A stretch of 64,000 nucleotides of DNA, taken from a virus (Duplodnaviria; Heunggongvirae; Uroviricota; Caudoviricetes). Shown piece after piece: positions 3,177-31,492 of this stretch; position 1 is the first letter of the stretch, and each line of letters opens with the position of its first letter. Below the pieces are notes generated by a model. That model was not told where the DNA came from. It ran no database searches and was given only the letters and a program-made list of their open reading frames with translations. The stretch lies in the IMG/VR virus record IMGVR_UViG_3300021140_000485; one strand, given 5' to 3'. Made by a program: the position numbers and the translations under genes.

Positions 3177-3212
3177 TAAAAAACCCCCACTTTATGTGAG
3201 GGTCTATTTTAT
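3177..3212 (-). terminator. Intrinsic terminator of the conserved family: 'AAAACCCCCAC-tttat-GTGAGGG' followed by a T-run on the minus strand.
   Basis: GC stem with one conserved C·A mismatch, followed by U-run. It lies at the 3' end of gene 3209..3583. Confidence 0.6.
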
Positions 3213-3583
3213 TGTTTGTTAAACGTGAGTGTTATATCACCACCACTTTCAAATTCATTCCACGCTAAGAGTGTTTCTCCACCGTTTTGTGTCTGAGTCC
3301 ACGTCTTACCGTTTGCGTCCGCAATCATCTCAATAGTTTGGTCATTGTCCGCCATCCATCCACGGTCCACATACACTCCCGCCTCAGGACCAAATGAAAG
3401 GTTACCTTGCATATACCATACATTCTCCTGAACCCAAAATAAAAGACTCTTGGTGTTGTGTACCTCTGTTGATGACCACGACACTTGTGAATTCGGTCCA
3501 ATTGTTTGATTGCCAGGTCCAACACCATCAATAGTTAAATTGTATTCAGTGTTGTTGTTAATTGTAATATTTGCTTGCCACAT
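3209..3583 (-). CDS. Hypothetical small beta-rich (lectin-like?) protein.
   Basis: 124 aa, rich in N/T/G/W. Preceded on the minus strand by copy B of the 62-bp element. Confidence 0.55.
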   Translation of the reverse strand: MWQANITINNNTEYNLTIDGVGPGNQTIGPNSQVSWSSTEVHNTKSLLFWVQENVWYMQGNLSFGPEAGVYVDRGWMADNDQTIEMIADANGKTWTQTQNGGETLLAWNEFESGGDITLTFNKQ

Positions 3584-3610
3584 AATAATTTTTATTTATA
3601 AATAGTTTGG

Positions 3611-3672
3611 AATATGAAACCTGAGAATGAATGTAGGTGTGGTGTGTGAGGGTTTATCCCGAACCTCACCCA
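3611..3672. repeat. Copy B of the 62-bp intergenic element.
   Basis: 61/62 identity to 646..707. It lies 28 nt upstream of the start of gene 3209..3583. Confidence 0.85.
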
Positions 3673-3718
3673 TCGAAATGAATGAGTTGGTTTCATATTT
3701 ATCACATATTTATCACAT

Positions 3719-4090
3719 ATGAAGTATATCATCACCGAAAGTAAATTAAACGAATATATCCTTAGTGTCATTGAAGAAATGTTCCCTGTTGATGATATTA
3801 ATTATACTGAAGCGTATGACGATGATGGGAATCCTGACGATACTGCCTATGTGTTTTATCTTGGGGATTATGAAAATGATGAAGTTATCTTCAGATGGTA
3901 TAGTAAGGATTATTGGGATGGTCCAGACGAAAGTACAGTTGATTATAGGATTAGACAATCCCCACTTTTAGTTTTTGAATCCAATAATACCTTTTATGAA
4001 ATAAATTCTATGTTCCAAAATTTATGGAAACCCGTATTTATTAAATGGTTTTACGAATCATTTTCATTACCAATTAAAACAATACTTTAA
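3719..4090 (+). CDS. Hypothetical protein of the leader family ('MKYIITESKLNEY').
   Basis: Paralogous N-terminus with the adjacent gene. Acidic and aromatic-rich. Confidence 0.6.
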   Translation: MKYIITESKLNEYILSVIEEMFPVDDINYTEAYDDDGNPDDTAYVFYLGDYENDEVIFRWYSKDYWDGPDESTVDYRIRQSPLLVFESNNTFYEINSMFQNLWKPVFIKWFYESFSLPIKTIL

Positions 4091-4091
4091 T

Positions 4092-4451
4092 ATGAATTAC
4101 CTCATCACCGAATCTCAGCTTGAATCTTTGGTAGAACAAAAATCCCCGAACAAAAACTTTGATAGATACAAAAAGATTATTATGAAAATGTTCCCTGAGA
4201 TTACTATGATGTTCTTAGGTGATAGTGTGGAAGGTTGGAGTTCATCTGATAATAAAGCATATCAAAAACAAATTATTAAAGTTGTATTTGACCCACGTAA
4301 AATCACTCAAGGTGAATACTTTGATGGATATTCTTATGACGCATATGAATCGTGTCGAAAAGTCCGTAAATTTATGATGTATGACCTTAATATGGACTTT
4401 GGTCGGCAGTGGGATTTAGATTGTTATCAAATCACTCTTAAAAAACTCTAA
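4092..4451 (+). CDS. Hypothetical protein of the leader family ('MNYLITESQLESL').
   Basis: Tandem paralogue of 3719..4090 with different codons but the same N-terminal peptide. Confidence 0.6.
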   Translation: MNYLITESQLESLVEQKSPNKNFDRYKKIIMKMFPEITMMFLGDSVEGWSSSDNKAYQKQIIKVVFDPRKITQGEYFDGYSYDAYESCRKVRKFMMYDLNMDFGRQWDLDCYQITLKKL

Positions 4452-4661
4452 TCTTTCTGATGCCGGGACCGAATCTTCCCCTACCCCTTCTTTGGTTATA
4501 ATCCCCACAATATCTGATAACCTTACGTTCATCGTTACCTTATTGTCAGTTAATCCTACATATAATTCAGGGTTGCCAGGAACTACATAAAAATCCTTTA
4601 TGGTCCATTCCTTTTCGTTGTAACTAATCTTCTTACTTATGATTGGAAATGCGTCTCTCAT
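4416..4661 (-). CDS. Hypothetical protein.
   Basis: 81-aa ORF that overlaps the 3' end of the plus-strand gene. Weak support. Confidence 0.35.
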   Translation of the reverse strand: MRDAFPIISKKISYNEKEWTIKDFYVVPGNPELYVGLTDNKVTMNVRLSDIVGIITKEGVGEDSVPASERLEFFKSDLITI

Positions 4662-4666
4662 AAAGA

Positions 4667-4822
4667 TTAAATATCTTTCTTGAGTCTAAATGTACACGCA
4701 GGTTTTCCATTAATTAGTGGCATTCCGTGTTCATCGTATGTGATTGACTTAACCACAACCTTTTTGTTCTTAAATCTACCCATAAGAACCGTGTCCCCCA
4801 CTTTGATGTCAATCTTAATCAT
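4667..4822 (-). CDS. Small KOW-like protein (51 aa), not in the ORF track.
   Basis: Manual translation gives 'MIKIDIKVGDTVLMGRFKNKKVVVKSI...', which resembles a KOW motif. Confidence 0.35.
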   Translation of the reverse strand: MIKIDIKVGDTVLMGRFKNKKVVVKSITYDEHGMPLINGKPACTFRLKKDI

Positions 4823-4825
4823 TGA

Positions 4826-5254
4826 TTAAACTGTTGGTCCACATCCAGGATTTTTGTTTGGTGAGGTACATTTAACACCCGTGTAAAAGTCAAACTTCTG
4901 TGGTTGGACTCTTATGTTATCCCACTCACCGAAATACTCTTTAAACTTACCGTTCTTAATCCTCTCCCTTATCTCATCTAATTGTGGTGTGTATTTGTTT
5001 TGTTGTTTGGCACCATACATAACACTCTCTATCTTTGCTTTGAAGAACGCTCCTGTGGGTCCGAGTTCTACAGGTGTTGATTGTGAAGTATCTTTGGTAT
5101 CATAAAACTTACCGTTCTCACCTTTAACATAGTAACCTAAAAGACTATCAATATCTTTTTCTAATCCACTTAAAACAGTTACAGGGTCTTTACCTTGTTC
5201 AGATATTACACCCATAACTTCCTTAATTCTTGATATTTGTTCTTGTAGGTTCAT
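4826..5254 (-). CDS. Hypothetical protein with the leader 'MNLQEQISRIKEVMGVISEQ'.
   Basis: Its first 28 nt are identical to those of the next gene. Confidence 0.65.
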   Translation of the reverse strand: MNLQEQISRIKEVMGVISEQGKDPVTVLSGLEKDIDSLLGYYVKGENGKFYDTKDTSQSTPVELGPTGAFFKAKIESVMYGAKQQNKYTPQLDEIRERIKNGKFKEYFGEWDNIRVQPQKFDFYTGVKCTSPNKNPGCGPTV

Positions 5255-5255
5255 A

Positions 5256-5693
5256 TTAACAATCTCCTATACCATAAAAAATGCAGTCAATAAGTTCTGC
5301 ATCATTTTTATCCCATATGTAAACCATAGAATCATTATCATTCATTCTATCCCTACATAATCTATGGTGTCCATCTATTACAATTAGTTTTCCCTTGTGT
5401 TTGTATAAATGAATATCTTTTTTATCATATGTTTCATCGGACATATCATTTACGTAGTCCATATTAATATCCTTTTGAACACTATAAACTTTCTTTGTTG
5501 GTGACAATCTTTGTTTTTTTGGGTTAAGTGTGTGTATTAATTCATCACTATCATTTACCACCATATCAAAAATGTTTGTGGATTCTAAATCTTTTTTTAA
5601 TTCAGGTTCGTACATAATTCCACAGTCTTTATGACTTTCGGTTATCATCCCCATCATTGATTGTATTCTTGATATTTGTTCTTGTAGGTTCAT
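5256..5693 (-). CDS. ParB/Srx-like nuclease-domain protein with the leader 'MNLQEQISRIQSMMGMITES'.
   Basis: The motif 'LIVIDGHHRL' is the DGHHR signature of ParB-like nuclease domains. Confidence 0.65.
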   Translation of the reverse strand: MNLQEQISRIQSMMGMITESHKDCGIMYEPELKKDLESTNIFDMVVNDSDELIHTLNPKKQRLSPTKKVYSVQKDINMDYVNDMSDETYDKKDIHLYKHKGKLIVIDGHHRLCRDRMNDNDSMVYIWDKNDAELIDCIFYGIGDC

Positions 5694-6478
5694 TACTTTT
5701 TATTCTTAACACAGTTAGGATATCTTTTACCAAACATCGTCTTCATACCTTTTTGAGTATATCCTTTCCAACATCTTTCAGTAATCTCGGTCTCACTTAA
5801 CGAACCTTTTAATTCATCTGCTTGTCGAGCTCGTAATTTCATCAAATACATTCGTTCAATCCACTCATCAGGCTCTTTTTGAAGTTCATCCTTCTTAAAT
5901 AAAGTATTTGGAATAATAAAGTCAATCATTTCGTCTTTGGTAATACCTTCAGGTTTTGTTGGTGGTGGAACACACACACTATTCATTTCTTGGTCTACAG
6001 ATATCTCATCAACATCAATATCATCCCTACCAACTATTTTATTTACCTCATCCAATTGTGTATCTTCAAACCACTGAAGCATCAAGTGAGTCAAATAAGT
6101 CCCTCTAAGTGATAGAATATTTAAAGTTTCTTTGAACTTACCTTTTGGTATAAATAACGTTCCTGATATAAATGCTCGTTCCATCATTTTTCTTGGGTCA
6201 TCCCACACACTTTCATCGTTGTGGAAAAATAATGCCAATTCCATTATAATTTTCCCGTCCTTACACCATTCCAAATCGTATCTTGTCTCATAATGTTTTA
6301 TAAGATATACATTGGAACCCTCAACATACTTATTCAGAATGTTATAAACCACTTTTTCTATATTAGGCGTAGGCTTAGTATATTTGGACCTAATCTGTTC
6401 CATCAATATTTCTTTAACACAATTCGTCAAGTTCATAATAATAAATACTTGGTTAATATTTATATTAACAATAGCCAC
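5693..6478 (-). CDS. Hypothetical protein.
   Basis: 261-aa ORF with a basic Cys-containing C-terminal tail. Confidence 0.55.
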   Translation of the reverse strand: MAIVNININQVFIIMNLTNCVKEILMEQIRSKYTKPTPNIEKVVYNILNKYVEGSNVYLIKHYETRYDLEWCKDGKIIMELALFFHNDESVWDDPRKMMERAFISGTLFIPKGKFKETLNILSLRGTYLTHLMLQWFEDTQLDEVNKIVGRDDIDVDEISVDQEMNSVCVPPPTKPEGITKDEMIDFIIPNTLFKKDELQKEPDEWIERMYLMKLRARQADELKGSLSETEITERCWKGYTQKGMKTMFGKRYPNCVKNKK

Positions 6479-6502
6479 CCTGTTATCAGGGCAATTTAGG
6501 AC

Positions 6503-6549
6503 CGTTACCGTTTCGGTAACAAAAAAAAGGGGAATTCGCTACTCCCCTT
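6503..6549 (-). terminator. Tandem hairpin terminator (GTTACCG-ttt-CGGTAAC and GGGGA-n9-TCCCC), with A/T-runs on both sides.
   Basis: Perfect inverted repeats. Lies at the 3' end of gene 6551..7174. Confidence 0.6.
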
Positions 6550-6550
6550 T

Positions 6551-7174
6551 TTATTTTAAACTCTCAGGTAAATAAAGTAATGTTGGGTTTTTCTTTTGAA
6601 TATCAACATCAGGATATCTTTCCTTGAATTTCATTGTATTGAAGGGTTGTGTGATGATGTGTACCCCACTCCTTGTTTTAATGTATGTCATAAATGTATC
6701 CCTACCATCTTCCTTATGTAACTCATTAATGAATTCTCTCATAGAAGTGTAATAACTGTTATGTGCAAAGTTATCAAGACTTACATTGTCAATATCAATA
6801 ACCCAACGTTTCTCTTGTGTTTTAATTTGACCAACAACAGAATCAAACAGGTGTTGTTGTTTTAGGTTTCCGTCCTGAATTCTTTGAGCAAGGGCGACCA
6901 TCATATTCAATGATACATCTTTGTGGTTTTGCTTTTGAACGTGAATATATGCACGAGCTTTGAACATCTCACAGAGTTGTTTAATCTCTTCATATCGTTT
7001 TTCAAGATACTCAATACTACTAACACAATATGTTTTAATAGTCCTAACCGATTGGTGATTATCTCTTTCACCTTCAGGTTGGTCTTTCTTTCTCTTGAAG
7101 ACATAGAGCATATAAAAATCACCCTCGTTTTCGAAGTTAAGTAGTTGTTTTATTTGTAGTATATTATCTATCAT
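6551..7174 (-). CDS. Hypothetical protein.
   Basis: 207-aa ORF. Confidence 0.55.
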   Translation of the reverse strand: MIDNILQIKQLLNFENEGDFYMLYVFKRKKDQPEGERDNHQSVRTIKTYCVSSIEYLEKRYEEIKQLCEMFKARAYIHVQKQNHKDVSLNMMVALAQRIQDGNLKQQHLFDSVVGQIKTQEKRWVIDIDNVSLDNFAHNSYYTSMREFINELHKEDGRDTFMTYIKTRSGVHIITQPFNTMKFKERYPDVDIQKKNPTLLYLPESLK

Positions 7175-7177
7175 AAA

Positions 7178-7420
7178 TTATTTTATAAATGTATTATAAA
7201 TTGCGGAGTTGGCAATAAAAAATGCACACCAACCTAAAATACTCATAACCACCACATATCCAACATAAAGTTCATCTTTATTGTCGAATTGAAATTTTAA
7301 ATATTCTTTGAATGATTTCATATCAACAAGTTTACTGACGGTCCAATGCATCAACAAAACCTCCAATACACCAACTAAAATTAAAATAAACAATACCATC
7401 ATTTCCATATTTTTTTCCAT
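7178..7420 (-). CDS. Small membrane protein (two predicted TM helices).
   Basis: Hydrophobic segments 'VLFILILVGVLEVLL' and 'VVVMSILGWCAFFIA'. Confidence 0.5.
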   Translation of the reverse strand: MEKNMEMMVLFILILVGVLEVLLMHWTVSKLVDMKSFKEYLKFQFDNKDELYVGYVVVMSILGWCAFFIANSAIYNTFIK

Positions 7421-7680
7421 CGGTTTTTAATTTCATCACCGTAACAAATAACAACCCCCAGTAAAAATATACCAAGAACCGTCCCTATAATTGTGTAAAA
7501 GTGTTCAGGTCTCATAATCTATAATTTAAAAAAGTTTATCGTACAACCATCTGAATACATAATCGACTCCTCTAAAGATAACGTAAACAAGACAATAAAG
7601 TAGGAGGAGGTAGATTAAAATCATACCACAAAGATATAATCTTATTTTGATATAACCAACACGACCACTATTTATTTTTA

Positions 7681-7953
7681 ATGGATAACGCAATCGTCAT
7701 AAAAAAACTACTACTAGCCCTTTTGAGGAGACAGTACCCCGAAATTGTTGATGTCGTAGTTAGTGTTAGAAAGGACCCTATGTTAGAATATCGCACAGAT
7801 TATTTTATCTACATTGGAGTCGCTTATAAGGACTTGTTAAATATCAATGCAAGTAAAATGATGAACGATGCCAGAGAAATTGTTTACGATGTTGCAGGAG
7901 GAAGAAATAGTTTTAATAGCGTTTCAATTCAAACCTATGACCCGAATAATTAA
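7681..7953 (+). CDS. Hypothetical protein.
   Basis: 90-aa ORF on the minority strand. Confidence 0.45.
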   Translation: MDNAIVIKKLLLALLRRQYPEIVDVVVSVRKDPMLEYRTDYFIYIGVAYKDLLNINASKMMNDAREIVYDVAGGRNSFNSVSIQTYDPNN

Positions 7954-8381
7954 GTTGTTGAATTAATCGACTCAGCAATCATCTTTTTAAATTTTGTCGT
8001 ACTCCATCCGTGAGAACGATTTAAATAATGAATGTCAATTGGAAGTTCCTTACCAGTAAAGTCTTTATCTTTGTAATCATCACCCAGGAATCTCACACCA
8101 GGACTTACTTTCAAAATAAGTTCAACCAATTCTTTTTCTGTTGTGTAGGTTGAGACCTCATTAACGTATTTAAGTGATAACAACATTTTGACTCTCTCCT
8201 CAACACTTAGGATTGGTTTTAACTTCTCAGGTCTTTCGATGGTTGGGTCAGTGTGCAACAACACGTGGACCCAATAACAATGTTCTTTCATCTCTTTGAA
8301 CATCTCGATATATCCAGGATGGATAACATCAAAATTACCAGCAATCACACCAATACTATACTTCTCACTATTTGGTTTCAT
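7950..8381 (-). CDS. Cytidylyltransferase-like nucleotidyltransferase (TagD / RfaE-domain-II fold).
   Basis: 'GVIAGNFDVIHPGY' matches the (T/H)xGH nucleotidyltransferase motif, with HPGY as a variant. 143 aa. Confidence 0.65.
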   Translation of the reverse strand: MKPNSEKYSIGVIAGNFDVIHPGYIEMFKEMKEHCYWVHVLLHTDPTIERPEKLKPILSVEERVKMLLSLKYVNEVSTYTTEKELVELILKVSPGVRFLGDDYKDKDFTGKELPIDIHYLNRSHGWSTTKFKKMIAESINSTT

Positions 8382-8390
8382 AAAATAAAA

Positions 8391-8789
8391 TTAAAAATGG
8401 TTCCTATAAAAATAAATTATGTCAGGAAACCTCTCAAATATCTTTGCCGTGACATCACATAACCACAGGTCTAAATTATAATCTATCGAGTAAATTGATG
8501 GTAACACATACCAAGCACCACCAATTTCTTTTTTACCGTCTTTAGTCTTAATCAAAGTGTATGATGCTTTCATTTTCTCATCCGACAAGGTACACTTGAA
8601 CTCACTATCACCTTGAGCAATTAATTCACAGAGATAGTCAGCACCTGATATCATCTCGAGTTCGTCAATATCACCTTCCCATTTGGGAATGTCCACAAAC
8701 CATCTGCTTTCAGGGGTTTTATAAAATCTATATGTTACTTCCATATTCTTGAGATTTGTTTTCTCAGAGGGGTTTTTATAATTATACAT
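8391..8789 (-). CDS. Hypothetical protein.
   Basis: 132-aa ORF. Confidence 0.5.
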   Translation of the reverse strand: MYNYKNPSEKTNLKNMEVTYRFYKTPESRWFVDIPKWEGDIDELEMISGADYLCELIAQGDSEFKCTLSDEKMKASYTLIKTKDGKKEIGGAWYVLPSIYSIDYNLDLWLCDVTAKIFERFPDIIYFYRNHF

Positions 8790-8866
8790 TATTAAAAAAA
8801 AAGTTTCAACTTGTTTGGGTAGATTAAACGGTAAAAACTTATATTTGTGGGTATTTATCTTTAACT

Positions 8867-9760
8867 ATGAGTGATTACAGACAATATATTACGGAATCCG
8901 TAAATTTGCGTGACTATTTAACAGATTCTGATTACGAGATTATATTTTATGATATGTTGAGGGATTTTGCCTTCGAGAGAAATCCAAAGTTATCTCGTAG
9001 AATCAATATGTCATATCTAATGACTAATTTTTTAGATAGTTTTATTAAACACTATAATTTGGATAAGAATAAAACACGTTATAGTCCAAGAGGTATTCCT
9101 GCAATTTATGGTCGTGAACTTTATGACGCAGGTTTATATGAAGTATCAATTTATTCACCTGAGAAAAAATTTACAGACACGTTCAAAAGATATTTAAATT
9201 GGTCAATATCAAAAATGAATATACCTAAAGAAGTTAATTACACCGTAACTGAAGAAATACCTAATAATGTAGAATTCCGTACATTTATAAATTATGAAGA
9301 TATTGTTAAATCAGGCCAAGTAAATCCCGAAATTTTAAAATACACGTCTCGTTCATATTCATCTCCATTTAACAAATTAGTTAGTGACTTGAAGTCTGAG
9401 CTAAACCTAAAGAAGGGTAACCCAACTGAAGGAGGTATACAATTTAACGTATACGAAACAGAATATACTGGCCGTCAGGAGTGGACTCAAAAATTCCTTA
9501 AACAACTTAGAAAATTTGTCAAGTCAAACGAGTTTTTAAAAGACAAGGTTAAAGCAATTAAACTAAAAGAAAACAACTACAGAATGGACCTCGACATAAT
9601 TTTAAATAACCCTGACCAATACACATCTTGGCATAGTCGTAGTGAAAATAGAGAAAAATTACAAAATATTTTCACCGTTATTAAAGATTACATTGAAGGT
9701 GAAGGATATAGTTTATCAGTATTTGAAATAGATTCACCTACTATGAGAAAACACTTTTAA
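8867..9760 (+). CDS. Hypothetical protein. Its N-terminus carries 'YITES'.
   Basis: 297-aa ORF, followed by a bidirectional terminator. Confidence 0.55.
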   Translation: MSDYRQYITESVNLRDYLTDSDYEIIFYDMLRDFAFERNPKLSRRINMSYLMTNFLDSFIKHYNLDKNKTRYSPRGIPAIYGRELYDAGLYEVSIYSPEKKFTDTFKRYLNWSISKMNIPKEVNYTVTEEIPNNVEFRTFINYEDIVKSGQVNPEILKYTSRSYSSPFNKLVSDLKSELNLKKGNPTEGGIQFNVYETEYTGRQEWTQKFLKQLRKFVKSNEFLKDKVKAIKLKENNYRMDLDIILNNPDQYTSWHSRSENREKLQNIFTVIKDYIEGEGYSLSVFEIDSPTMRKHF

Positions 9761-9762
9761 AT

Positions 9763-9795
9763 AAAAACCCCCACTTTAAGTGAGGGTTTTTTGTT
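9763..9795. terminator. Bidirectional intrinsic terminator of the conserved family ('AAAAACCCCCAC-tttaa-GTGAGGGTTTTTT').
   Basis: Lies between convergent genes, with U-runs on both strands. Confidence 0.7.
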
Positions 9796-10017
9796 TTACC
9801 AAGATTCAACATCAGTTAAATCAATTTCAACCTTAGCCAGGTGACTATAAACCACAAGACCATTTCCAATTCCTGTTGGAGTTATTTTCCAAGTGAATGT
9901 ACCATATTCTCCATAAATCGCTTTAATGTGTGATAACCATTCGTCATACATTTCCTGTTGTTTCTCATTAAGTTCCTCGTGAATTACAGTTTTTCTTATT
10001 TTATTCTCTTCCATCAC
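9796..10017 (-). CDS. Hypothetical protein.
   Basis: 73-aa ORF, 4-nt overlap with the RNA ligase gene. Confidence 0.45.
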   Translation of the reverse strand: MMEENKIRKTVIHEELNEKQQEMYDEWLSHIKAIYGEYGTFTWKITPTGIGNGLVVYSHLAKVEIDLTDVESW

Positions 10018-11027: not shown

Positions 11028-11053
11028 ATGTTTTTTTTACAAACATACGGATT

Positions 11054-11743
11054 TTATCTGATTTTACCAACACTAAACCCGTCGCTATCTACAACAATCC
11101 CTGTTCTTTTGAAGAAATTTTCATAGAAGTAGTCATTTAATTCATCTTGTATCTCCATACTAACTTCCCATCCAATCTCCTCATCATTAACAACATCTTT
11201 CAAATTTCTAGGTTCATAGTCACCTGTCATAACTAAACTAACAGTACCATCTACGATTGCCCAAAAATCAATTCGTTTTAAATCTTCATTTACGTGGTAG
11301 TTTTTTATTTTGAAGTCAAAGTTGTATCCACCACTTTCTACGTGATGTTTTGATAACAAAAAGTCTAAATTATTTTTAATTATATTATCAAAACCACCCA
11401 ACACATTTCTAATTAAAATATGACGAGCTTTTTCAAGAGTCATCCCATTTTTACCAATAAAAAACTCTTTGAATGTGTCATCCAATAAAGGTCGTTTAGT
11501 TAAAACTCTTTTAACAGTCTCATCGAATGATGTGTCTTCATTGATTGGATTTGGTTGGTTATCGTGCCAACACTTATGACAAATGTATGTGTCATCACCA
11601 CCTTCAGATATCTTCCAAGACCACCCACAATTATCACATATAACCTCACCATTCTCAACTTTTTCGGTAAGTAATGTCATAACTTGTTTTATACGTGAAA
11701 TGTCTTCAGATAGTCTCATATTAATAAATATCCCTATCACCAA
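11054..11743 (-). CDS. Zinc-ribbon protein with the leader 'MRLSEDISRIKQVMTLLTEK'. The likely start is the internal Met at 11719.
   Basis: CxxC...CxxC ('CDNCGW...ICHKCW'). Confidence 0.55.
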   Translation of the reverse strand: MVIGIFINMRLSEDISRIKQVMTLLTEKVENGEVICDNCGWSWKISEGGDDTYICHKCWHDNQPNPINEDTSFDETVKRVLTKRPLLDDTFKEFFIGKNGMTLEKARHILIRNVLGGFDNIIKNNLDFLLSKHHVESGGYNFDFKIKNYHVNEDLKRIDFWAIVDGTVSLVMTGDYEPRNLKDVVNDEEIGWEVSMEIQDELNDYFYENFFKRTGIVVDSDGFSVGKIR

Positions 11744-13587: not shown

Positions 13588-13677
13588 ATTAGTATAAATA
13601 TTAAAATTGTTAGTGGTTCCAGTAAATTAACGTAAGGGTAATATTGAATCATCTTACCTTCTATATGTCCAATCATA

Positions 13678-14556: not shown

Positions 14557-14578
14557 AGAACAAATATAATAAAAAAAA

Positions 14579-14847: not shown

Positions 14848-14868
14848 AAATATGTTAAAAACAAAAAA

Positions 14869-14896
14869 CCCCACCGTTAAGTGGGGTTCAAGATTA
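14869..14896 (-). terminator. Intrinsic terminator (CCCCAC-cgttaa-GTGGGG, a perfect stem) with a U-run on the minus strand.
   Basis: Lies at the 3' end of the cyclophilin gene. Confidence 0.65.
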
Positions 14897-15343
14897 AATC
14901 AATTCCATAGAATTGATTTGGTCACCTTGTTGGAGTTGGTCAATGATATCAACACCTTCAACAATCTTCCCAAAACAGGTATGATTACCGTCCAAGTGTT
15001 GGGTGTTCTGTCTATTGTGACAGATAAAGAACTGTGAACCTCCTGTGTTACGACCAGCGTGTGCCATTGAAAGAACACCTTTATCGTGGAATTGTTTTGG
15101 CGCTGTTACTTCACATTGGATTGTGTATCCAGGTCCTCCATTTCCAACACCGTTAGGACAACCACCTTGGGCAACAAATCCAGGAATCACTCTATGGAAA
15201 TTAAGTCCGTCATAGAATTTCTTGTTAATCAAACTCTTAAAGTTTTCTACCGTGATTGGAGTTTCGTTGTCATACAACTCCGCAATCATATCACCTTTTG
15301 CTGTTGAGATTTTTACTTTACTCATATATCTTGTTTTTAACAA
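14894..15343 (-). CDS. Cyclophilin-type peptidyl-prolyl cis-trans isomerase.
   Basis: 'FHRVIPGFVAQGG' and 'GGSQFFIC' are cyclophilin signatures. Confidence 0.85.
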   Translation of the reverse strand: MLKTRYMSKVKISTAKGDMIAELYDNETPITVENFKSLINKKFYDGLNFHRVIPGFVAQGGCPNGVGNGGPGYTIQCEVTAPKQFHDKGVLSMAHAGRNTGGSQFFICHNRQNTQHLDGNHTCFGKIVEGVDIIDQLQQGDQINSMELI

Positions 15344-15359
15344 TGATAACTAAAAAATA

Positions 15360-16250: not shown

Positions 16251-16278
16251 AAAACCCCCACCGATTGGTGAGGGTTTC
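16251..16278 (-). terminator. Conserved-family terminator ('AAAACCCCCAC-cgattg-GTGAGGGTTT').
   Basis: Lies at the 3' end of the SPFH gene, with a minus-strand U-run. Confidence 0.6.
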
Positions 16279-16282
16279 AAAG

Positions 16283-17137
16283 TTACTTAATCCCATACAT
16301 TAGATTGGTTCCATTTCCCAGGACCGTGGACGGTACGTTACCTTTCCACTTCTCAATCCATTGTTGTTGAATCAACATAGGAGTTAGTGTTTGTTGTCGT
16401 AGTCGGTTTGCTTCCGCTTCAGCCTTAGCTCTTGTTAACATCGCCTGAGCGTTACCTTCAGCAGTTGCCACTTTAATCTTAGCCTCAGCCTCAGCTTGTT
16501 TTACTTTGTTCTCAGCCGTTAAAGCCGCTTGGACCGCGTTATTCTTAGCTTCAATTGCTTTCTTGAATGTTTCAGGGTAAACCAAGTTAGATGTAAACTG
16601 ACTTAGAATAAACCCTTCAGGTTCAAGTTGTTTTACCAAAACACTTCTAACCTTCAACTCAAACAATTCACGGTTTGAAATCAATTCATCCGCAGTGTAT
16701 GAGTTAGCAACAACTCGGAAAGCATCATACACAGCCGTCTTTAGAAATCCACCTTCAATATCACCCAACTCAACACGATACTTTGAAAAAATGTAAGGTA
16801 CTTTTTCACGTTTAACTGAGTAGTTCAACAATGGTGATACGTGAAACTCGGAACCGTCTTTTGAGTTAACAACAAACGACTCATCGATTTCATTCTCCCT
16901 GTCCAACTTATATTCTTTGTGTTGAACGTATGTTGGGAACTCAACAATTTTTGTACTGATTGGGTTATAAAATACCCACCCTGTTACCTCAGTAACATCA
17001 TCAACACCTTTACCATCTCCATAGAGATTTACCTTAACACCTACGTGTCCTGCATCAATACGTTCACATCCTGCGAACATAGTGAAAATTAATACCAAAG
17101 CAATTACGCTTCCCAAAATTTTAGTTAGATTGCTCAT
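16283..17137 (-). CDS. SPFH/band-7 (prohibitin/HflC-like) membrane protein.
   Basis: N-terminal TM segment, then an SPFH core, then a C-terminal Ala/Glu/Lys-rich coiled coil 'AEAEAKIKVATAEGNAQAM...'. Confidence 0.75.
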   Translation of the reverse strand: MSNLTKILGSVIALVLIFTMFAGCERIDAGHVGVKVNLYGDGKGVDDVTEVTGWVFYNPISTKIVEFPTYVQHKEYKLDRENEIDESFVVNSKDGSEFHVSPLLNYSVKREKVPYIFSKYRVELGDIEGGFLKTAVYDAFRVVANSYTADELISNRELFELKVRSVLVKQLEPEGFILSQFTSNLVYPETFKKAIEAKNNAVQAALTAENKVKQAEAEAKIKVATAEGNAQAMLTRAKAEAEANRLRQQTLTPMLIQQQWIEKWKGNVPSTVLGNGTNLMYGIK

Positions 17138-17380: not shown

Positions 17381-17406
17381 AAAACCCCCCACCGAAGTGA
17401 GGGGTT
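17381..17406 (-). terminator. Conserved-family terminator ('AAAACCCCCCAC-cgaa-GTGAGGGG'). It sits about 185 nt 3' of the stop of gene 17591..18025.
   Basis: Stem plus minus-strand U-run. The intervening 185 nt contains no convincing ORF. Confidence 0.5.
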
Positions 17407-17590
17407 AGTGTGTTGGCTAGGTTTTCTTCAATAAAGGTTTTAATGAGTTTTAAGGTTTGACTCTCTCAGTGATTTTTGAACAGGTGAACAATCTAATTTT
17501 TGAATACTTTAACGTCATCAATTATCTAATGGATAGTAGAGTTTTTATGTAACTAAATCTCCAAAAACACCAACCAAACACAACTTTCTT

Positions 17591-18025
17591 TTACAACGTT
17601 TTTGTCGCGTTGTATGTGTCTAACTCGTCCTGAAGAGCGTCAATCTCGTCTTCATAAGACTTAACCATTTTGTCTCGGGTGCTAGCGCTGATAACTACAT
17701 TATAGTTCAACAACATTGATTCACCATAACCTCTACGACTAACGTTACCCTCTTGGGTATCCATTTTCTTCAAGGTCTTAACCAAATTTTTCAATTCAGA
17801 CAAACGGAAAATCTTGTCATAAACTTCATTATTCGCCCTGTGGATTGCAGTCTTCAATTCAATCAATTGGTTAGTTTCTTCCAACAAACTCTGCAATTCT
17901 GTCTGTGGGTCATAACTACGGATGGCTCCTTCGATAACTGAGTTATCTTTTTCAATTCGAACAATTCTCTCATTGATACTTTTCACCAATCGAGCTTTTT
18001 GTTTTAGTGCTTGTTTAATCGTCAT
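17591..18025 (-). CDS. Hypothetical coiled-coil protein.
   Basis: 144-aa ORF. Confidence 0.5.
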   Translation of the reverse strand: MTIKQALKQKARLVKSINERIVRIEKDNSVIEGAIRSYDPQTELQSLLEETNQLIELKTAIHRANNEVYDKIFRLSELKNLVKTLKKMDTQEGNVSRRGYGESMLLNYNVVISASTRDKMVKSYEDEIDALQDELDTYNATKTL

Positions 18026-19567: not shown

Positions 19568-19626
19568 AGTATTTTTATCTATAAATATACAATTACAAAG
19601 TATTTATCATATATCTTTGATTCATT

Positions 19627-26219: not shown

Positions 26220-27170
26220 TTCTGGCACTTAGGTTGAGAATACACCTTCGATTAAGAATCTTTAGGGACATTATTGTTTCTTCCCGTTTCCACTACCTTT
26301 TGAGTAGTAATTCTTAGTGACGGTTCCTTAGGGGTACCATTCCTTGAGTCGTGCGGTTACTCTCTTTGTACTTGTTACTCTCCGAGGTTGCCACCCCAGT
26401 GAATCCTTGCGGGATTAGAGAACTTTCTCAAGAATCATTTGGGTCTTGGGAACCCATAATGGCAATGAACATCTCATTACTATGTAGTCACCTTTCGCCT
26501 ACGACTGACAGACACTTTTCCTTCGTCTTTTAGTATTTGCATACTTCAAAATGCAAAGTTGTTGGTCTGTGGATGGTGAAAGTAGCGGTCTGCCAACCAG
26601 ACAAGCCATCTTTTGAACGACTCGATACTGAACTACTCTCTGAGATATCCCTACCTCGATACTTCAAGAAATCTTCATAATTAAAATCTTGGTAGATTCT
26701 AACTAAGGTTACCAACAGCACCACCTGTACGATAACATGACTTTCGTCTTTAAGACACCTCTGATATTGAATCCCGTGATTGTAAAGTTGGATGACTTTA
26801 CTTCTCACAACAATTCTACGAGTTATTCTTATTGTTCTTCCGAACTCAACTCAACGACCCACATCGCTGAGTCATCATTCCATTTTGTCTACAGTGTCAC
26901 CCTCGACTACTCAGGAACAATGATATCCCGCTTGCCTACTCGAGCTCTAAGAACCGAAGTTCAAAGAACCGCAGTCTCCGTTAACCTTCGGAGACCACTT
27001 TATCCCACTTTCGTGGTTTATTTATTGACCATAGGCGGCCAATTATCTTATTTACTAACCTGTTGGTTAGAAGGATAATCAAATATGTAAAAGAACGTGT
27101 TTCGTTAATTGTTTCACAAAGTTAAGAAGATTATTTTAATCTGTCAAGCACTTTGTAAAAGTTTTTTTTG
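26220..27170 (-). ncRNA. Candidate structured noncoding RNA or 3' trailer co-transcribed with tRNA-Met. About 950 nt, elevated GC, no ORF longer than 113 aa in any frame.
   Basis: Bounded by the tRNA (5' side on the minus strand) and a strong terminator (3' side). The frame-track ORFs here are short and non-protein-like. Identity unknown. Confidence 0.3.
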
Positions 27171-27244
27171 TTGCGGGAGTCGGACTCGAACCGACGGCCT
27201 CAAGGTTATGAGCCTTGCGAGCTACCAACTGCTACCACCCCGCG
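27171..27244 (-). tRNA. tRNA-Met (anticodon CAU), initiator-like.
   Basis: Reverse complement reads 'CGCGGGGTGGTAGCAGTTGGTAGCTCGCAAGGCTCATAACCTTGAGGCCGTCGGTTCGAGTCCGACTCCCGCAA'. It shows a cloverleaf, a C1·A72 mismatch, a GTCGG/CCGAC T-stem and TTCGAGT T-loop, the anticodon loop CTCATAA, and no encoded CCA. Confidence 0.85.
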
Positions 27245-27908: not shown

Positions 27909-28259
27909 ATGAGAGTAAAAATAGGTGAAAATATATTCAATGTGAAGATTAGACACGACAATAAAGGTCGTGCTATGGGTATGATGGGTCGTAAATTTAC
28001 TGACGAGTATAACGGTATGTTATTCTTTATGGATGAAGACTCAAGTTGTTTTTGGATGAAGAACTGCGTCATTCCTCTTGATATCATATTCATTGATAAT
28101 AGAGTAATAACTAAGATACACCACGACTGTCCTCCTTGTAAAGAAGATGACTGTCCAAGTTATTGTGGAAAGGGTGGAATGATTTTAGAAATTATGGGTG
28201 GTTCTGCAAAAGAACTCGATATCAAAAAAGGTGATGAGATTAAGATTCTTGTTGACTAG
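27909..28259 (+). CDS. DUF192-family protein.
   Basis: 'GMMGRKF....GMLFFMDEDSSCFWMKNCVIPLDIIFID' follows the DUF192/COG1430 pattern. Confidence 0.6.
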   Translation: MRVKIGENIFNVKIRHDNKGRAMGMMGRKFTDEYNGMLFFMDEDSSCFWMKNCVIPLDIIFIDNRVITKIHHDCPPCKEDDCPSYCGKGGMILEIMGGSAKELDIKKGDEIKILVD

Positions 28260-29658
28260 CATCAATCTTCTCTTGTAACTTTCTCAAAAATTCCTCACCA
28301 ATCATTTTAACAAACTTAATGTAAGGAGCGTCCTCTCTTTCAGGGTCGTATCTGTATGAACCTCTTGGTGGTCTTGTACTTCTTCCAAGATAGTTAAGTC
28401 CTGATATGTTGGTAATACATTTGTGTCCACCTGAGTTAGCTTGAATCAAGTCCCAAGCGTTGATACCAATCTTATCTAACATTTGCATTTCTTCTTCAGA
28501 TAGTTGGTCGTATGGTTTTTCCATCATATCCTTAATTTTATCAAGGATTTTTTCACCACCATCCATCATCATCAACTTACCACCATAAATTGCATCGAAG
28601 TCTTTGAATGTAAATCCTACTGATTCAGGTCCAACTGATGATTCACTCACATACTTTATCGTTGATAATGGGATTGTTCTATCTTTAAGTTGTCCCTCCC
28701 ATTTGGCCAGAACCTCTTGTGCAATCTCACCGAGATTAACACCTTTGAGTTCTCTATCTTTTTTGAATGGATTACAAGATGCCTGTACTAACCCTAACGG
28801 CCACATAATAATTAAGAAGTCAGCTTCAGGATTGTTTCTAAAAGGAGTGTATCGGTCATATGACCCAGTACCTTTTAAACTACCCATACCATACTGAACG
28901 ATGATATTACCAATCTTCCTAACATTTGGATGACCTTTCATTGAGTCCATATAGGTCTCAGCGTTTCTTTGAAGGTCCTCAGGTTTTTCTCTTGTATTGG
29001 AACCCATCCAAGATTTGATGTTGTTTAATATTGAAAGTAAGGATGGTTCCGAATCATTAACCAAGTATTCAAGGAACCCTTTCTTGTTTTTGAACGCCAA
29101 CAATAGTTTGTTTGTAACAAATCCTAACAACATTTTGTTACTAGCCAAATCTTTTTCTTTGTTAAGTCTAAACAAATAATTGATTACATCCTTGGTTGTT
29201 AAACCATATTTGGCAAAGTCTGCTGAGTCGACAGTTGATATTAATCTAATGTCATCAGCAGGAAATAATTCTTTTGGTGAGATAATTTGTGAAATGGTTT
29301 CAACGTTTGACCTTGCCTGTCTAAAAGACTTTGAAGCGTCTTTCTCAGCACCGACTTGTTTGTCGTGGTGGTCAGTGTGAATAACAAACATTGGTTTACC
29401 GTGAGCAAAATCAACTAAGACTGGCATTACATCACCAGATGCATCAGGTTTTTTAACTGAGAATTCTTTATCTCCATACTGTATAACCTCACTATCAACA
29501 ACTTTAATACCATTATCTTCAAGGTATTTTTTCATTGCAATTGCAGTTGTTACACCATCCAAATCTTGGTGGAAATATATTTTAGCCTTTGGGTATCTTT
29601 GTGCCAAAGCCTTAATGTCTCTTAAACCTGATTCCTTAATTATTTTTTTCATACACAC
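28240..29658 (-). CDS. DHH-family phosphoesterase (NrnA/RecJ-like DHH plus a C-terminal domain).
   Basis: 'FHQDLDGVTT' (DxD) and 'VIHTDHHDK' (DHH) motifs. 472 aa. Confidence 0.7.
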   Translation of the reverse strand: MCMKKIIKESGLRDIKALAQRYPKAKIYFHQDLDGVTTAIAMKKYLEDNGIKVVDSEVIQYGDKEFSVKKPDASGDVMPVLVDFAHGKPMFVIHTDHHDKQVGAEKDASKSFRQARSNVETISQIISPKELFPADDIRLISTVDSADFAKYGLTTKDVINYLFRLNKEKDLASNKMLLGFVTNKLLLAFKNKKGFLEYLVNDSEPSLLSILNNIKSWMGSNTREKPEDLQRNAETYMDSMKGHPNVRKIGNIIVQYGMGSLKGTGSYDRYTPFRNNPEADFLIIMWPLGLVQASCNPFKKDRELKGVNLGEIAQEVLAKWEGQLKDRTIPLSTIKYVSESSVGPESVGFTFKDFDAIYGGKLMMMDGGEKILDKIKDMMEKPYDQLSEEEMQMLDKIGINAWDLIQANSGGHKCITNISGLNYLGRSTRPPRGSYRYDPEREDAPYIKFVKMIGEEFLRKLQEKIDASQQES

Positions 29659-29661
29659 TAA

Positions 29662-30033
29662 TTACATTGATGGTAACATACTCATAAGAACCACATCGTT
29701 AGCTCTTAACCCATTTTTAGCCTTTAAATTACACAAATGATTGAATTTATACATATGGTTCGCTTGCATCGTCATATCTTCTAATTTACTCAAACTATCA
29801 CCAGGTTTGATTTTATACAACATTATGTTTTGCACACCTTCGTTTTTAATATCTTTAACTAAATCTTCTTTAGTGAAACAATATTTTGCACCGGCTTCAG
29901 TTGGTTTAGGACCTTTTTTAAGAATCTCTTCCGCTTTTTTAACGTAAAAAGATTCAGGTTGTGTCTGTTCACTAACAACCTTACGAATTAAGTTAGTTAA
30001 TTCTGACTCTGTTAATCTAATAACTTTTTTCAT
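29662..30033 (-). CDS. Hypothetical protein. Its N-terminus 'MKKVIRLTESELTNLIRKVVSEQ' belongs to the leader family.
   Basis: 123-aa ORF. Confidence 0.5.
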   Translation of the reverse strand: MKKVIRLTESELTNLIRKVVSEQTQPESFYVKKAEEILKKGPKPTEAGAKYCFTKEDLVKDIKNEGVQNIMLYKIKPGDSLSKLEDMTMQANHMYKFNHLCNLKAKNGLRANDVVLMSMLPSM

Positions 30034-30404
30034 TAGTATTTAAGTGTTAATAGGTATTTTAATTTGTTTATTAATAGTAACATCTCATCTCTCAAGTTGA
30101 GTAAGTCGCTATCAACTTTAGGGTCTAATCTGTCAGTAAGTGAAATTAAAAATTCACACGTACCATCAATAAAGCTTTGTAATGACATTGATTCTAAGTC
30201 TTGAAACATAATTGAGAATGATTCTGTAAATTCAGGTCTACCATATTTACCCATCATACCTTCAACAAAGTCATCAATGAATCCCCCCATTTTATCGTAT
30301 ACTTTACCGTATGCTCTGTGTTTTGCGTCATACATAGTTTGCCAATGTATAAATCTAAATTGGTTTTGTATTTGTACTAATTTTAATATTACTTCTTCTT
30401 TCAT
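30033..30404 (-). CDS. Hypothetical protein.
   Basis: 123-aa ORF. Confidence 0.5.
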   Translation of the reverse strand: MKEEVILKLVQIQNQFRFIHWQTMYDAKHRAYGKVYDKMGGFIDDFVEGMMGKYGRPEFTESFSIMFQDLESMSLQSFIDGTCEFLISLTDRLDPKVDSDLLNLRDEMLLLINKLKYLLTLKY

Positions 30405-30405
30405 T

Positions 30406-31461
30406 TTAAGCCGTCATTGGTCCTTTTATTAATGTATTCATAAACATACCCATTATATCCATTTTTTGTGAACCTAAAGACATTTCGTTACCACCATCTT
30501 TAACTTCATCTGATACTTTTGGGAAATCCTCTTGTAAATATGTTTGTGCTTCAGGAGTTTTTTCATACTTCTCCATCTTGGCTAATAATTCGTCTTCCCC
30601 TCCAACTATTTTTTCAAGTTCATCTGGTCCAACAAAATTTGCAACACCTAAATAATCTAAGAATCCTAAATAGAATTTGGTTTTACCCATCAAAACTCTA
30701 ATCTTCATATTACCTTTTCTCCATAGGTCCGAAACTCTTCCAGCACCTAATCCACCACCATAAAAAAATCTTTGTAAAAAATTTGGTTTGTTTAAAATTG
30801 TGGGGTCCAAGAATTTTTCTCTCTTAACTAACGACTCAAGTCCTTGAATTAGTTCTTGTTGTTGTTTAGCAGATTTAGTAGGTAATCTTTTCGCTAAAGA
30901 AGCCGCCTCAGTTCCAACACCTCTAAAAAGTCTTACCCATTCTTTGATGGTGTTTTTAAATCCTCTTGTGATGGCTCCACCAGGTATACGGTCAATGAAT
31001 TCATCAACTTTTGGTGCCCATTCTCTACCTTTTCTTGCGAAAGTACCAAGAGCACCTTCACTTTTAGCAATTTGATTTAGATATTTTTGCGCTTTAACAG
31101 TATCACCAGCATCAACTGCTTTAGATACCGCTCTCATTAATTGAGGTGTTTTACCCCCAACTTTCATCGCTCCCATAACAGATTTACCTAAAGCATCACC
31201 AATGTAAGGGACAACAGAAATTAACGATAAAAAGGCATAAAGGTTATCGCCTTGTCTGTAATAAGATATTGCGTTTATTAAATCAGCAATTCCTGTTGGG
31301 TCTACAATCCCAACCAAACTTAACACATCATTTTTCCAATTGTCCTCGTTAAGAGTTTTAGTATCAGAAGTTTTTTCCAATACCATAACACTCTTAATGA
31401 TTTCAAGTTGGGATTCCGTTAATATTACTTGAGGCATAAATTCTTTTACAATAAATACCAA
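30406..31461 (-). CDS. Hypothetical protein. It carries 'MPQVILTESQLEIIKSV' near its N-terminus, so the start may be the internal Met at 31437.
   Basis: 351-aa ORF, Gly/Ala/Lys-rich. Confidence 0.55.
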   Translation of the reverse strand: MVFIVKEFMPQVILTESQLEIIKSVMVLEKTSDTKTLNEDNWKNDVLSLVGIVDPTGIADLINAISYYRQGDNLYAFLSLISVVPYIGDALGKSVMGAMKVGGKTPQLMRAVSKAVDAGDTVKAQKYLNQIAKSEGALGTFARKGREWAPKVDEFIDRIPGGAITRGFKNTIKEWVRLFRGVGTEAASLAKRLPTKSAKQQQELIQGLESLVKREKFLDPTILNKPNFLQRFFYGGGLGAGRVSDLWRKGNMKIRVLMGKTKFYLGFLDYLGVANFVGPDELEKIVGGEDELLAKMEKYEKTPEAQTYLQEDFPKVSDEVKDGGNEMSLGSQKMDIMGMFMNTLIKGPMTA

Positions 31462-31465
31462 GAAG

Positions 31466-31492
31466 TTAAAAAGAAAACCCCCACTTTTTTAG
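31466..31492 (-). terminator. Conserved-family terminator ('AAAACCCCCAC-tttttta-GTGAGGGTT').
   Basis: Overlaps the stop of the methyltransferase gene, with a minus-strand U-run. Confidence 0.6.

Follow-up and report, generated by a model that had tools for sequence, protein, structure and literature searches.

What does it mean when several hairpins in one phage genome share not only a shape but very nearly the same letters? A preliminary description of the stretch analysed here (64,000 nucleotides, hereafter the window) had noted a family of terminator-like stems carrying an apparently invariant C·A mismatch, and had proposed that their sequence is conserved beyond structural need, either through recognition by a protein or through the recent spread of a small element. 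We examined the strand, anatomy and position of these hairpins, their counterparts in related phages, and the frequency of the odd base pair across viral contigs.

Strand, anatomy and number of the hairpins

The open reading frames of the window lie nearly all on the minus strand, and at all six sites it is on this strand that a T-run comes after the hairpin (GUGGGGG followed by UUUU(U/A/C)...). For these two reasons the RNA stem contains a U·G pair rather than C·A: the minus-strand transcript reads AACCCUCAC-loop-GUGGGGGUUUU, that is, CCCUCAC/GUGGGGG, fully paired with a single wobble, and the C·A mismatch came from reading the hairpin on the non-coding strand. Because the opposite strand reads the wobble as C·A, the hairpin is strong in sense (−14.6 to −19.0 kcal/mol, 10–12 continuous pairs) and about 4–5 kcal/mol weaker in antisense (−10.1 to −14.0 kcal/mol, with an internal mismatch), in keeping with the strand specificity that G-U versus C-A confers on terminator hairpins (Kingsford et al. 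2007, PMC1852404). The six sites and one neighbouring region are as follows.

3181..3205, minus strand: T1, AGACCCUCAC-AUAAA-GUGGGGGUUU then UUUAUUU; 3 nt past the stop of the minus-strand ORF 3209..3583; sense −14.6, antisense −10.1 kcal/mol
9763..9791, minus strand: T2, AAAAACCCUCAC-UUAAA-GUGGGGGUUUUU; 4 nt past the stop of a 73-aa ORF (9796..10017), opposite the convergent plus-strand ORF 8867..9760; sense −17.0, antisense −13.2 kcal/mol
14866..14889, minus strand: T6, the shorter variant CCCCAC/GTGGGG, RNA GAACCCCACU-UAAC-GGUGGGGUUU, equal to the family stem without its U·G pair; 4 nt past the stop of a cyclophilin gene (14894..15343)
16251..16278, minus strand: T3, GAAACCCUCACC-AAUC-GGUGGGGGUUUU; 4 nt past the stop of an SPFH/Band-7 gene (16283..17137); sense −19.0, antisense −14.0 kcal/mol
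17383..17406, minus strand: T4, AACCCCUCAC-UUCG-GUGGGGGGUU then UUUU; sense −17.2, antisense −12.9 kcal/mol
17407..17590, minus strand: conserved noncoding region, about 180 nt long, that separates gene 17591..18025 from T4
31474..31502, minus strand: T5, AGAACCCUCACU-AAAAA-AGUGGGGGUUUU; the loop contains the stop codon of a DNA methyltransferase gene (31489..32358); sense −16.5, antisense −11.4 kcal/mol

Five of the six hairpins lie at, or no more than 4 nt from, a minus-strand stop codon, and T4 follows one at a distance of 184 nt. A stable GC-rich sense-strand hairpin with a stem of about 5–14 bp and a loop of 3–8 nt, a U-tract on its 3' side and a position after a co-oriented gene or RNA are the features of intrinsic terminators, and they support the view, already taken in the preliminary description, that these are predicted Rho-independent terminators, here of leftward, minus-strand transcription. 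T2, which has T-runs on both strands, may also act on plus-strand transcripts, more weakly because of the C·A mismatch. A caution for sequence-only reading follows from the strand assignment: a conserved 'mismatch' may be a G·U wobble on the other strand, and may reveal the direction of transcription.

A search of the window for CCCCAC-N(3–10)-GTGRGGG returned five matches, all on the plus strand (3185–3202, 9769–9786, 16256–16274, 17387–17403 and 31479–31498), where 0.01 were expected and none of 100 shuffles reached five. The five repeated hairpins and the sixth, perfect variant could thus all be located far above chance; the fifth had been placed about 8 nt too far left, at 31466..31492. 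Family members make up 5–6 of the 16 sense-strand terminators of the window, and the other ten have different stems. All copies fall within 3–32 kb, amid accessory genes that include the cyclophilin, SPFH and methyltransferase genes and an RNA ligase operon. Their 7-bp stems are identical and their loops are five different ones (AUAAA, UUAAA, AAUC, UUCG and UAAAAAA); the flanks do not align beyond the hairpin and its A/T tracts. The shared sequence therefore does exceed what a GC-rich stem and a U-run call for, both in the window and across IMG/VR, and the thought that the five are a sampling accident among terminators without sequence preference fails on the excess over expectation and on the IMG/VR counts given below.

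That GC-rich terminator stems of an AT-rich genome simply come to look alike has something to recommend it, in that terminators of the relatives often begin CCCU.../...GGGG and stem position 4 shows a mild general enrichment of U·G (16 of 158). It would nonetheless have to yield five identical 7-bp stems against an expectation of 0.01, in a group of phages where the family occurs about once per 200–400 kb, and a control with the wobble moved to position 3 speaks against generic wobble tolerance. We regard coincidence or convergence as already refuted for practical purposes, its residual probability being minimal.

The same arms had also been said to recur in a 62-bp upstream repeat. This repeat is 63 nt long, with copies at 645–707 and 3610–3672 that are 98% identical. 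One copy holds GTGAGGG and the other GTGAGGA, the partner arm is CCTCAC, which makes a different hairpin, and the GTGGGGG/CCCCCAC arm is absent from the repeat. Its fold is not significant (z = −1.6) and no copy of it occurs among the 437 loci examined. With a single arm-like string to connect it to the family, the repeat was rejected as a member.

The family in relatives and at mosaic breakpoints

The window belongs to a large uncultured aquatic phage. Megablast of positions 1–20000 against INPHARED phages gave no match, and the INPHARED protein matches were only to uncultured huge phages (39–43% identity) and PA5oct-like phages (<30%). On the 3' side of the terminators, Bacteroidota-type TAnnTTTG motifs occur that might hint at the host; clear TTGACA-16/17-TATAxT promoters are present too.

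At the homologous positions of relatives the family is not conserved by position. The T3 site carries the family hairpin in none of 80 relatives, which have other terminators there, and the gene content downstream of it is highly variable among the same 80; compared with the relative L035, T3 is the left edge of a two-gene insertion. At the T5 site a terminator with a different stem is present in 78 of 79 relatives; T5 stands in place of the GGGUC/GACCC-type terminator found there in relatives, and the family stem appears only in one 99%-identical contig. The window terminator at 14574–14599 is of the CCUGAG type and its counterpart in L035 is of the CCCUCAC type. The nearest relative after the 98–99% contig is only about 70–77% identical, and the 'replacement' at T5 may accordingly have come about by gradual turnover and not in one conversion event. 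Across 1.97 Mb of protein-selected relatives we counted nine family occurrences at five unique sites (about one copy per 200–400 kb), against five copies in the window. Among the explanations first offered, the recent spread of a small element fits these counts, and the differing T3 and T5 sites, best.

T4 is the exception, being the only member kept at its homologous position in distant relatives, and it is probably the oldest resident copy. There the relatives show 15 hairpin types in which the inner stem covaries and the odd pair is U·G in 7 of 15, C-G in 4–5 and U-A in 2. Two contigs also differ at a site that they share, with U-A in L285 and U·G in L311. The mismatch had been called invariant, and these comparisons at homologous positions show U·G alternating with both Watson-Crick forms. 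Since U·G is replaced by C-G or U-A at the homologous site, the wobble is not essential. The region that precedes T4 contains conserved blocks, among them GATAATTGAT, TTCAAAAGTCA and TTAAAACTTAAAACTC; apart from the terminator RNAalifold found no conserved fold in it, and nothing in Rfam matched it significantly. It is possibly an unstructured small RNA ended by T4, or regulatory DNA.

L311 matches L285 on its upstream side and L312 on its downstream side, with the changeover exactly at the hairpin they share. More broadly, 179 family hairpins occupy 110 genomic contexts, and 37 pairs of contexts have one flank only in common. In this way the hairpin marks breakpoints in the mosaicism of related phages. 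Amplification of the same stem is also seen in L066, a contig with no detectable protein similarity to the window: within 14 kb it has 14 copies, and a conserved block of about 90 nt comes after every one of them.

A tiny REP- or MITE-like mobile element, whose transposase or nuclease would recognise the imperfect DNA hairpin through its G·T or C·A, could account for copies in 110 contexts, many of them unrelated, for amplification in particular lineages and for a conserved imperfection. We consider it very unlikely. Nothing is conserved beyond the hairpin of about 25–30 nt and its tracts, target-site duplications are absent, and T5 replaces an old terminator instead of being added as an insertion. 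Every copy is in terminator orientation, directly past a stop codon (184 nt past, for T4), and a scan of about 50 ORFs of the window, beyond which the genome extends, turned up no transposase, RAYT-type, HNH or GIY-YIG domain.

The coincidence of recombination breakpoints with the hairpin could also be taken to mean a DNA-level signal housed in terminators: an uptake sequence like DUS or USS, a recombination hotspot or a packaging-related signal of host or phage. Uptake sequences serving as terminator stems are a documented case of sequence-conserved terminators (PMC1852404). This reading is highly improbable on present counts, with only 5–6 copies per 64 kb, all strictly intergenic and co-oriented with genes; 120 bacterial stretches among the matches listed hold mostly single copies, span many phyla and GC contents, and include no densely populated genome.

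Origin of the shared stem and its wobble

We put at roughly 0.65 the probability of the joint reading in which the six sites are intrinsic terminators, as predicted from their anatomy, and recombination has multiplied one terminator module in this lineage, so that the shared sequence would reflect common descent and not structural need. On this account copies of a single module would have reached a number of gene ends, unrelated to one another, in the lineage of this phage, probably by short-patch recombination or gene conversion, and gene-plus-terminator cassettes were probably exchanged between co-infecting phages. The hairpin would have served as a short homologous linker in such exchange, as PeSL elements do in T4-type phages, and the wobble would be the founder's inherited mark, persisting since its cost in RNA is presumably low. 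One feature sits awkwardly with simple recent duplication, which would have preserved the loops too: because the loops differ, the identical stems may owe something to selection on their sequence or to an unusual way of copying.

Selection of that kind is the substance of the recognition hypothesis, according to which a factor of the phage or its host, be it an antiterminator, an RNA chaperone or a processing or 3'-end-protecting RNase partner, recognises the hairpin and keeps the stem with its U·G, so that new terminators would converge on this sequence or give way to it. Identical stems amid differing loops and flanks are consistent with it, as is the amplification of the same stem in L066; in addition, the protein encoded at 53523..54458 weakly matches Q-like antiterminators (phrog_127, E = 5e-6). 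A further point in its favour is the frequency of the wobble. Among the IMG/VR matches listed for the stem AACCCNCAC..GTGNGGGTTTT, an unselected set, there are at least 89 unique U·G sites, at least 16 with U-A and at least 13 with C-G, which makes the wobble form about 5–7 times commoner than either Watson-Crick form among the viral contigs listed, an excess that is hard to interpret since the contigs in the sample are not phylogenetically independent. In a control with the wobble position shifted by one, the counts were C-G 63, U·G 15 and U-A 14; there the stem with a wobble is about four times rarer than the perfect one. Stem position 4 of generic terminators in the relatives has U-A in 39, C-G in 36 and U·G in 16 (n = 158). 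Selection acting on the wobble, and not inheritance, could lie behind this surplus of U·G relative to both Watson-Crick pairs. A full-text literature search for the commonest variant, CCCTCACAGAAATGTGGGGG, matched no paper.

Other observations weigh against recognition, which we judge unlikely. At the homologous, protein-selected T4 site, U·G, C-G and U-A alternate and the inner stem covaries. Close relatives have unrelated stems at the T3 and T5 positions, so no gene here depends on the hairpin, and ten terminators of the window manage with other stems. In distant bacteria the same stem is an ordinary terminator after tRNA genes. No conserved loop or bulge nucleotides of the sort found in nut boxB or RNase III sites are present, five copies having five loops and the family across IMG/VR having dozens, and no candidate binding protein was identified. 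The proposal that a protein recognises the hairpin thus fares poorly against varying loops, a covarying inner stem and unrelated stems at the same positions in relatives.

A bolder extension of the copied-module reading would make CCCUCAC/GUGGGGG a promiscuous, portable terminator module of unrelated aquatic phages, spread as a recombination linker (a terminator-only, pan-lineage analogue of PeSL) with its U·G wobble actively maintained. The wobble might be kept up because it prevents the DNA from being a perfect palindrome, because it makes termination one-directional or because a factor reads it. We find this extension conceivable but doubtful.

Comparison with known systems

The hairpins resemble intrinsic terminators in having a GC-rich stem of 7–12 bp, a loop of 3–7 nt and a U-tract, in lying at or near a co-oriented stop (184 nt away for T4), and in a wobble that only the sense RNA tolerates, so that the signal depends on direction. 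Ordinarily, however, such terminators have structure in common and not sequence, whereas in the window the same 7-bp stem, wobble included, recurs in 5 of 16.

REP and BIME palindromic repeats are short imperfect palindromes that lie after genes in many copies and may terminate transcription or stabilise mRNA. The family is like them in form, in its position 3' of genes and in being repeated; it differs in having far fewer copies, a canonical U-tract and no conserved flanking tetranucleotide, and no RAYT-type transposase was found.

The DUS and USS of Neisseria and Pasteurellaceae offer a parallel in which the sequence of a terminator stem is conserved for a reason other than termination (PMC1852404). 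Those signals occupy host genomes in hundreds to thousands of copies and are tied to natural transformation (PMC1852404); here, by contrast, a phage has a handful, and the bacterial matches listed include no densely populated host genome.

T4-type phages offer close counterparts in their PeSL (promoter-early stem-loop) cassettes, which run to about 100 bp and join a terminator stem-loop to a conserved sigma-70-type promoter (Arbiol et al. 2010, PMC2839356; Comeau et al. 2014, PMC4122927). As in PeSL, the window has repeated intergenic terminator hairpins in multiple copies amid small accessory genes, at recombination junctions where related phages differ by indels or replacements. Unlike PeSL, it conserves only the hairpin of about 25–30 nt, the promoter composite is absent, the same hairpin occurs in unrelated phages as well, and the window phage is not shown to be T4-type. 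The idea of a longer cassette repeated at the window hairpins was rejected, as their flanks do not align. No conserved promoter block comes after the copies, so they are not full PeSL-type cassettes. L066, with its hairpins and conserved downstream sequence, comes nearer to the true PeSL layout than the window does; its promoter-like block, ATTTTGTCTGGAAA, is absent from the window. The family adds a case, outside T4-type phages, of a repeated terminator placed where genome mosaics join, with amplification in particular lineages. It lends weight to the view that phages swap self-contained gene cassettes with the help of short regulatory hairpins.

Hairpin sites, strand and fold

The motif CCCCAC-N(3-10)-GTGRGGG matches the window five times, always on the plus strand, against 0.01 expected from dinucleotide-preserving shuffles. 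Neither arm alone is in unusual excess (CCCCCAC, 10 versus 4.8 expected; GTGAGGG, 6 versus 5.2), and the non-random signal is the pairing of the two arms. The five full hairpins (T1 to T5) and a shorter relative (T6) are:

T1, 3181-3205, minus strand: terminator 3-4 nt past the stop codon of a minus-strand ORF
T2, 9763-9791, minus strand: 3-4 nt past the stop codon of a minus-strand ORF, between convergent genes
T3, 16251-16278, minus strand: 3-4 nt past the stop codon of a minus-strand ORF
T4, 17383-17406, minus strand: after a 184-nt noncoding stretch
T5, 31474-31502, minus strand: stop codon inside the loop
T6, 14866-14889, minus strand: 3-4 nt past a stop codon; family stem minus the wobble pair

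All five sites named in the preliminary description are real, with the fifth interval placed ~8 nt too far left. When the window hairpins are aligned with 60-nt flanks, invariant columns are confined to the stem and adjoining T-run, so the conserved unit spans ~25-30 nt.

Transcription in the window is almost wholly leftward by the ORF list, and the T-run lies 3' of the hairpin on the minus strand; the 'AAAA' that had been set in front of the hairpin is this same run seen on the plus strand. Because the genes are on the minus strand, the hairpins follow minus-strand stop codons and the T-run is on that strand, the RNA reads AACCCUCAC-loop-GUGGGGGUUUU, and what had been described as a C·A mismatch is a U·G wobble. 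Sense-strand folds of T1-T5 have continuous stems (-14.6, -17.0, -19.0, -17.2 and -16.5 kcal/mol), and antisense folds carry an internal mismatch (-10.1 to -14.0 kcal/mol); strand-specificity of terminator hairpins through G-U versus C-A has been described (Kingsford et al. 2007, PMC1852404). T1-T6 are ordinary predicted intrinsic terminators, earlier read from the wrong strand. T2, with T-runs on both sides, may have a weaker second role as a predicted terminator for plus-strand ORF 8867..9760. The family stem occurs in 5 of the 16 sense-strand terminator-like hairpins in the window, and T6 has the same stem minus the wobble pair.

Pairing constraint and sequence preference

Homologues of gene 17591..18025 (40-49% amino-acid identity) have a conserved noncoding region downstream, with a predicted terminator 160-186 nt past the stop codon in 44 of 62 such loci. 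The stems at this T4 site vary around the pattern C(3-5)-[U·G, C-G or U-A]-C-A; the 15 distinct hairpin types have U·G in 7, C-G in 4-5 and U-A in 2, and the inner stem shows compensatory changes (CAC/GUG, CAUC/GAUG, CAAUA/UAUUG, CUGGUA/UACUGG). A second homologous site has U-A in one fetched locus (L285) versus U·G in another (L311). Since the three pairs alternate at homologous sites, the wobble is common yet dispensable, and the invariance once claimed for it does not hold. By these comparisons the hairpin evolves like a structure under pairing constraint, and T4 is likely the ancestral copy in this lineage.

The noncoding stretch that ends at T4 (17407-17590, minus strand, ~180 nt) is conserved in most of the 62 distant relatives, in blocks including GATAATTGAT, TTCAAAAGTCA and TTAAAACTTAAAACTC. 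It has neither a conserved fold nor an Rfam match; an unstructured small RNA is one possibility, a control region acting at the DNA level another.

IMG/VR has at least 120 matches to the exact motif. A second scan, which allowed any bases at the wobble pair (AACCCNCAC..GTGNGGGTTTT), walked the collection in the same order and is therefore a sample unselected for that pair. Its unique sites among the matches listed, where contigs are not independent samples and only within-scan ratios are meaningful, carry U·G in 89, U-A in 16, C-G in 13, G-C in 7 and A-U in 2; without contig L066 and contigs sharing window proteins, U·G numbers 57 versus 16 and 11 among the matches listed. Freeing the neighbouring pair instead gave C-G 63, U·G 15 and U-A 14 (among the matches listed), and in 158 unique terminators of protein-selected relatives wobbles form 7.4% of stem pairs, position 4 being U-A in 39, C-G in 36 and U·G in 16. 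By these two controls, general wobble tolerance does not account for the U·G excess; with the free-pair counts, they place the over-representation of this particular stem and wobble at roughly an order of magnitude, an excess that may come from descent or from selection. Most frequent is CCCUCACA-GAAA-UGUGGGGG, with 28 of 127 copies among the matches listed, in many different flanks. The family is genuine, widely scattered and amplified in this phage, and the earlier proposal that the shared sequence exceeds structural need is upheld by the five window copies and by the U·G excess in IMG/VR.

Recognition of the hairpin by a protein, also proposed earlier, would account for the excess of the wobble form. 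We regard it as doubtful, because it conflicts with the variable loops, with the wobble and stem variation at the conserved T4 site and with the unrelated stems that relatives have in place of T3 and T5, and no candidate protein was found. A DNA signal of the uptake-sequence kind has a precedent (PMC1852404) and is highly improbable here, as the bacterial matches listed are scattered across phyla and several are plain terminators past tRNA-Phe or tRNA-Ala genes.

CCCUCAC/GUGGGGG is the terminator directly 3' of tRNA-Phe(GAA) in Bacteroidales MAGs (L129, L139, L145, L152) and follows tRNA-Ala(GGC) in two gammaproteobacterial genomes (L135, L143), orthologous host sites with the same stem. Family stems repeat in tandem at bacterial loci L218 (2659-2870), L184 (1780-2000), L238 (5003-5440) and L237 (96-210), spaced ~90-100 nt apart (~190 nt in L184) and preceded by conserved sequence, and resemble small RNA gene arrays; examples are ctttatcctgaacaa-CCCTCAC-CGGTAACG-GTGGGGG and gttaacagcacaaaa-CCCTCAC-CGTAAG-GTGGGGG.

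Other features of the window and phage group

A full-length GOLLD RNA (Rfam RF02032; 26231-26640, minus strand; 307 bits, gathering score 150) has a tRNA-Met gene nearby (27170-27244, minus strand) and its own terminator directly 3' (AGAACCCGAAGA-AAAAAA-UCUUCGGGUUUU, 26223-26194). A 63-nt direct repeat (645-707 and 3610-3672, 98% identical), upstream of a YceI-like gene and of ORF 3209..3583, contains a GUGAGG/CCUCAC hairpin; its fold is not significant, and it has no copies in 437 fetched loci. Three tandem genes of ~1050-1140 aa each (39444-49284, minus strand) combine long stretches of collagen triple-helix repeats with a Peptidase_S74 (endosialidase chaperone) domain at the C terminus; they probably encode alternative tail fibres, and their 9-nt periodicity dominates the output of the repeat finder.

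An accessory set unusual for a phage (58-23404, minus strand) comprises YceI-like, hexapeptide transferase, BKACE, cytidylyltransferase, RNA ligase with PHA02142 OB domain, cyclophilin PPIase, SPFH/Band-7, two metallophosphatase, UDP-galactopyranose mutase and three GT2 glycosyltransferase genes. The motif (G)GATATTTAT(A/T)A recurs 15-25 nt ahead of start codons and downstream of many group terminators (~20-40 nt past them in relatives L241-L320; window 31440-31452, 58500-58515, 62580-62600) and may represent a promoter element that lacks a -35 box. Promoters of the classic TTGACA-16/17-TATAxT kind are also present, for example upstream of 18025.

A DHH-like 472-aa protein (28240-29658, minus strand) has >200 IMG/VR relatives on contigs up to ~145 kb, its sole INPHARED matches being uncultured huge phages of 635-735 kb (LR745206, LR756502; 39-43% identity). 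With the SPFH gene on contigs up to 310 kb, these relatives place the window in a group of large aquatic phages that is abundant and uncultured.

Spread and recombination seams

Relatives were fetched by protein similarity, a choice blind to terminators, and the closest informative ones are only ~70-77% identical to the window. At the T5 site, downstream of a methyltransferase gene, a terminator is present in 78 of 79 relatives, its stem being of the GGGUC/GACCC type or similar, and the sole carrier of the family stem is a 99%-identical contig. The protein is homologous there up to its final few codons and so is the next gene downstream, so the hairpin region is the sole difference. Past the SPFH gene, at the T3 site, the family stem is absent from all 80 relatives, which have varied other terminators or none, followed by different genes. 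Past one and the same small gene, the window has a CCUGAG stem (14574-14599) and relative L035 a CCCUCAC stem.

The U·G stem occurs nine times (five unique sites) in 1.97 Mb of relatives versus five copies in 30 kb of the window. Of the explanations suggested earlier, this density best fits the recent spread of a small element, and the amplification is lineage-specific. Chance likeness of the stems is excluded by the sparse copies in relatives, by the shuffle expectation and by the neighbouring-pair control. A transposon-like element is an unlikely vehicle: neither conserved ends nor duplications accompany the hairpin, T5 replaces the terminator type of the relatives, and ~50 window ORFs include no transposase or homing nuclease, in a genome that runs past the window.

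The family terminators also fall where gene neighbourhoods change. L311 matches L285 in the upstream gene and L312 in the sequence downstream, and it switches partner exactly at the hairpin present in all three. T3 is the left edge, in the window, of an insertion that L035 is without (280-aa ORF, cyclophilin gene, T6 and small ORF). Altogether, 179 family hairpins with 200-nt flanks fall into 110 distinct contexts, 37 pairs of which are alike on one flank only (31 upstream, 6 downstream), as fits a gene travelling together with its terminator. At such junctions the family hairpin marks recombination seams.

Contig L066 (IMGVR_UViG_3300042197_000954, 38684-53049), with no detectable protein similarity to the window, has 14 family copies in single-gene units within 14 kb (12 U·G, 2 C-G). 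Each copy, CCC(U/C)CACC-GAAA-GGUGGGGG and then a U-run, lies after a small ORF and before a conserved ~90-nt block containing GGAATTTTGTCTGGAAAAAGGGTGTATGACAC. This layout is very like the promoter-early stem-loop (PeSL) cassettes that mediate modular shuffling in T4-type phages (PMC2839356, PMC4122927), and we see our finding as a modest addition to known PeSL-type biology rather than a new mechanism.
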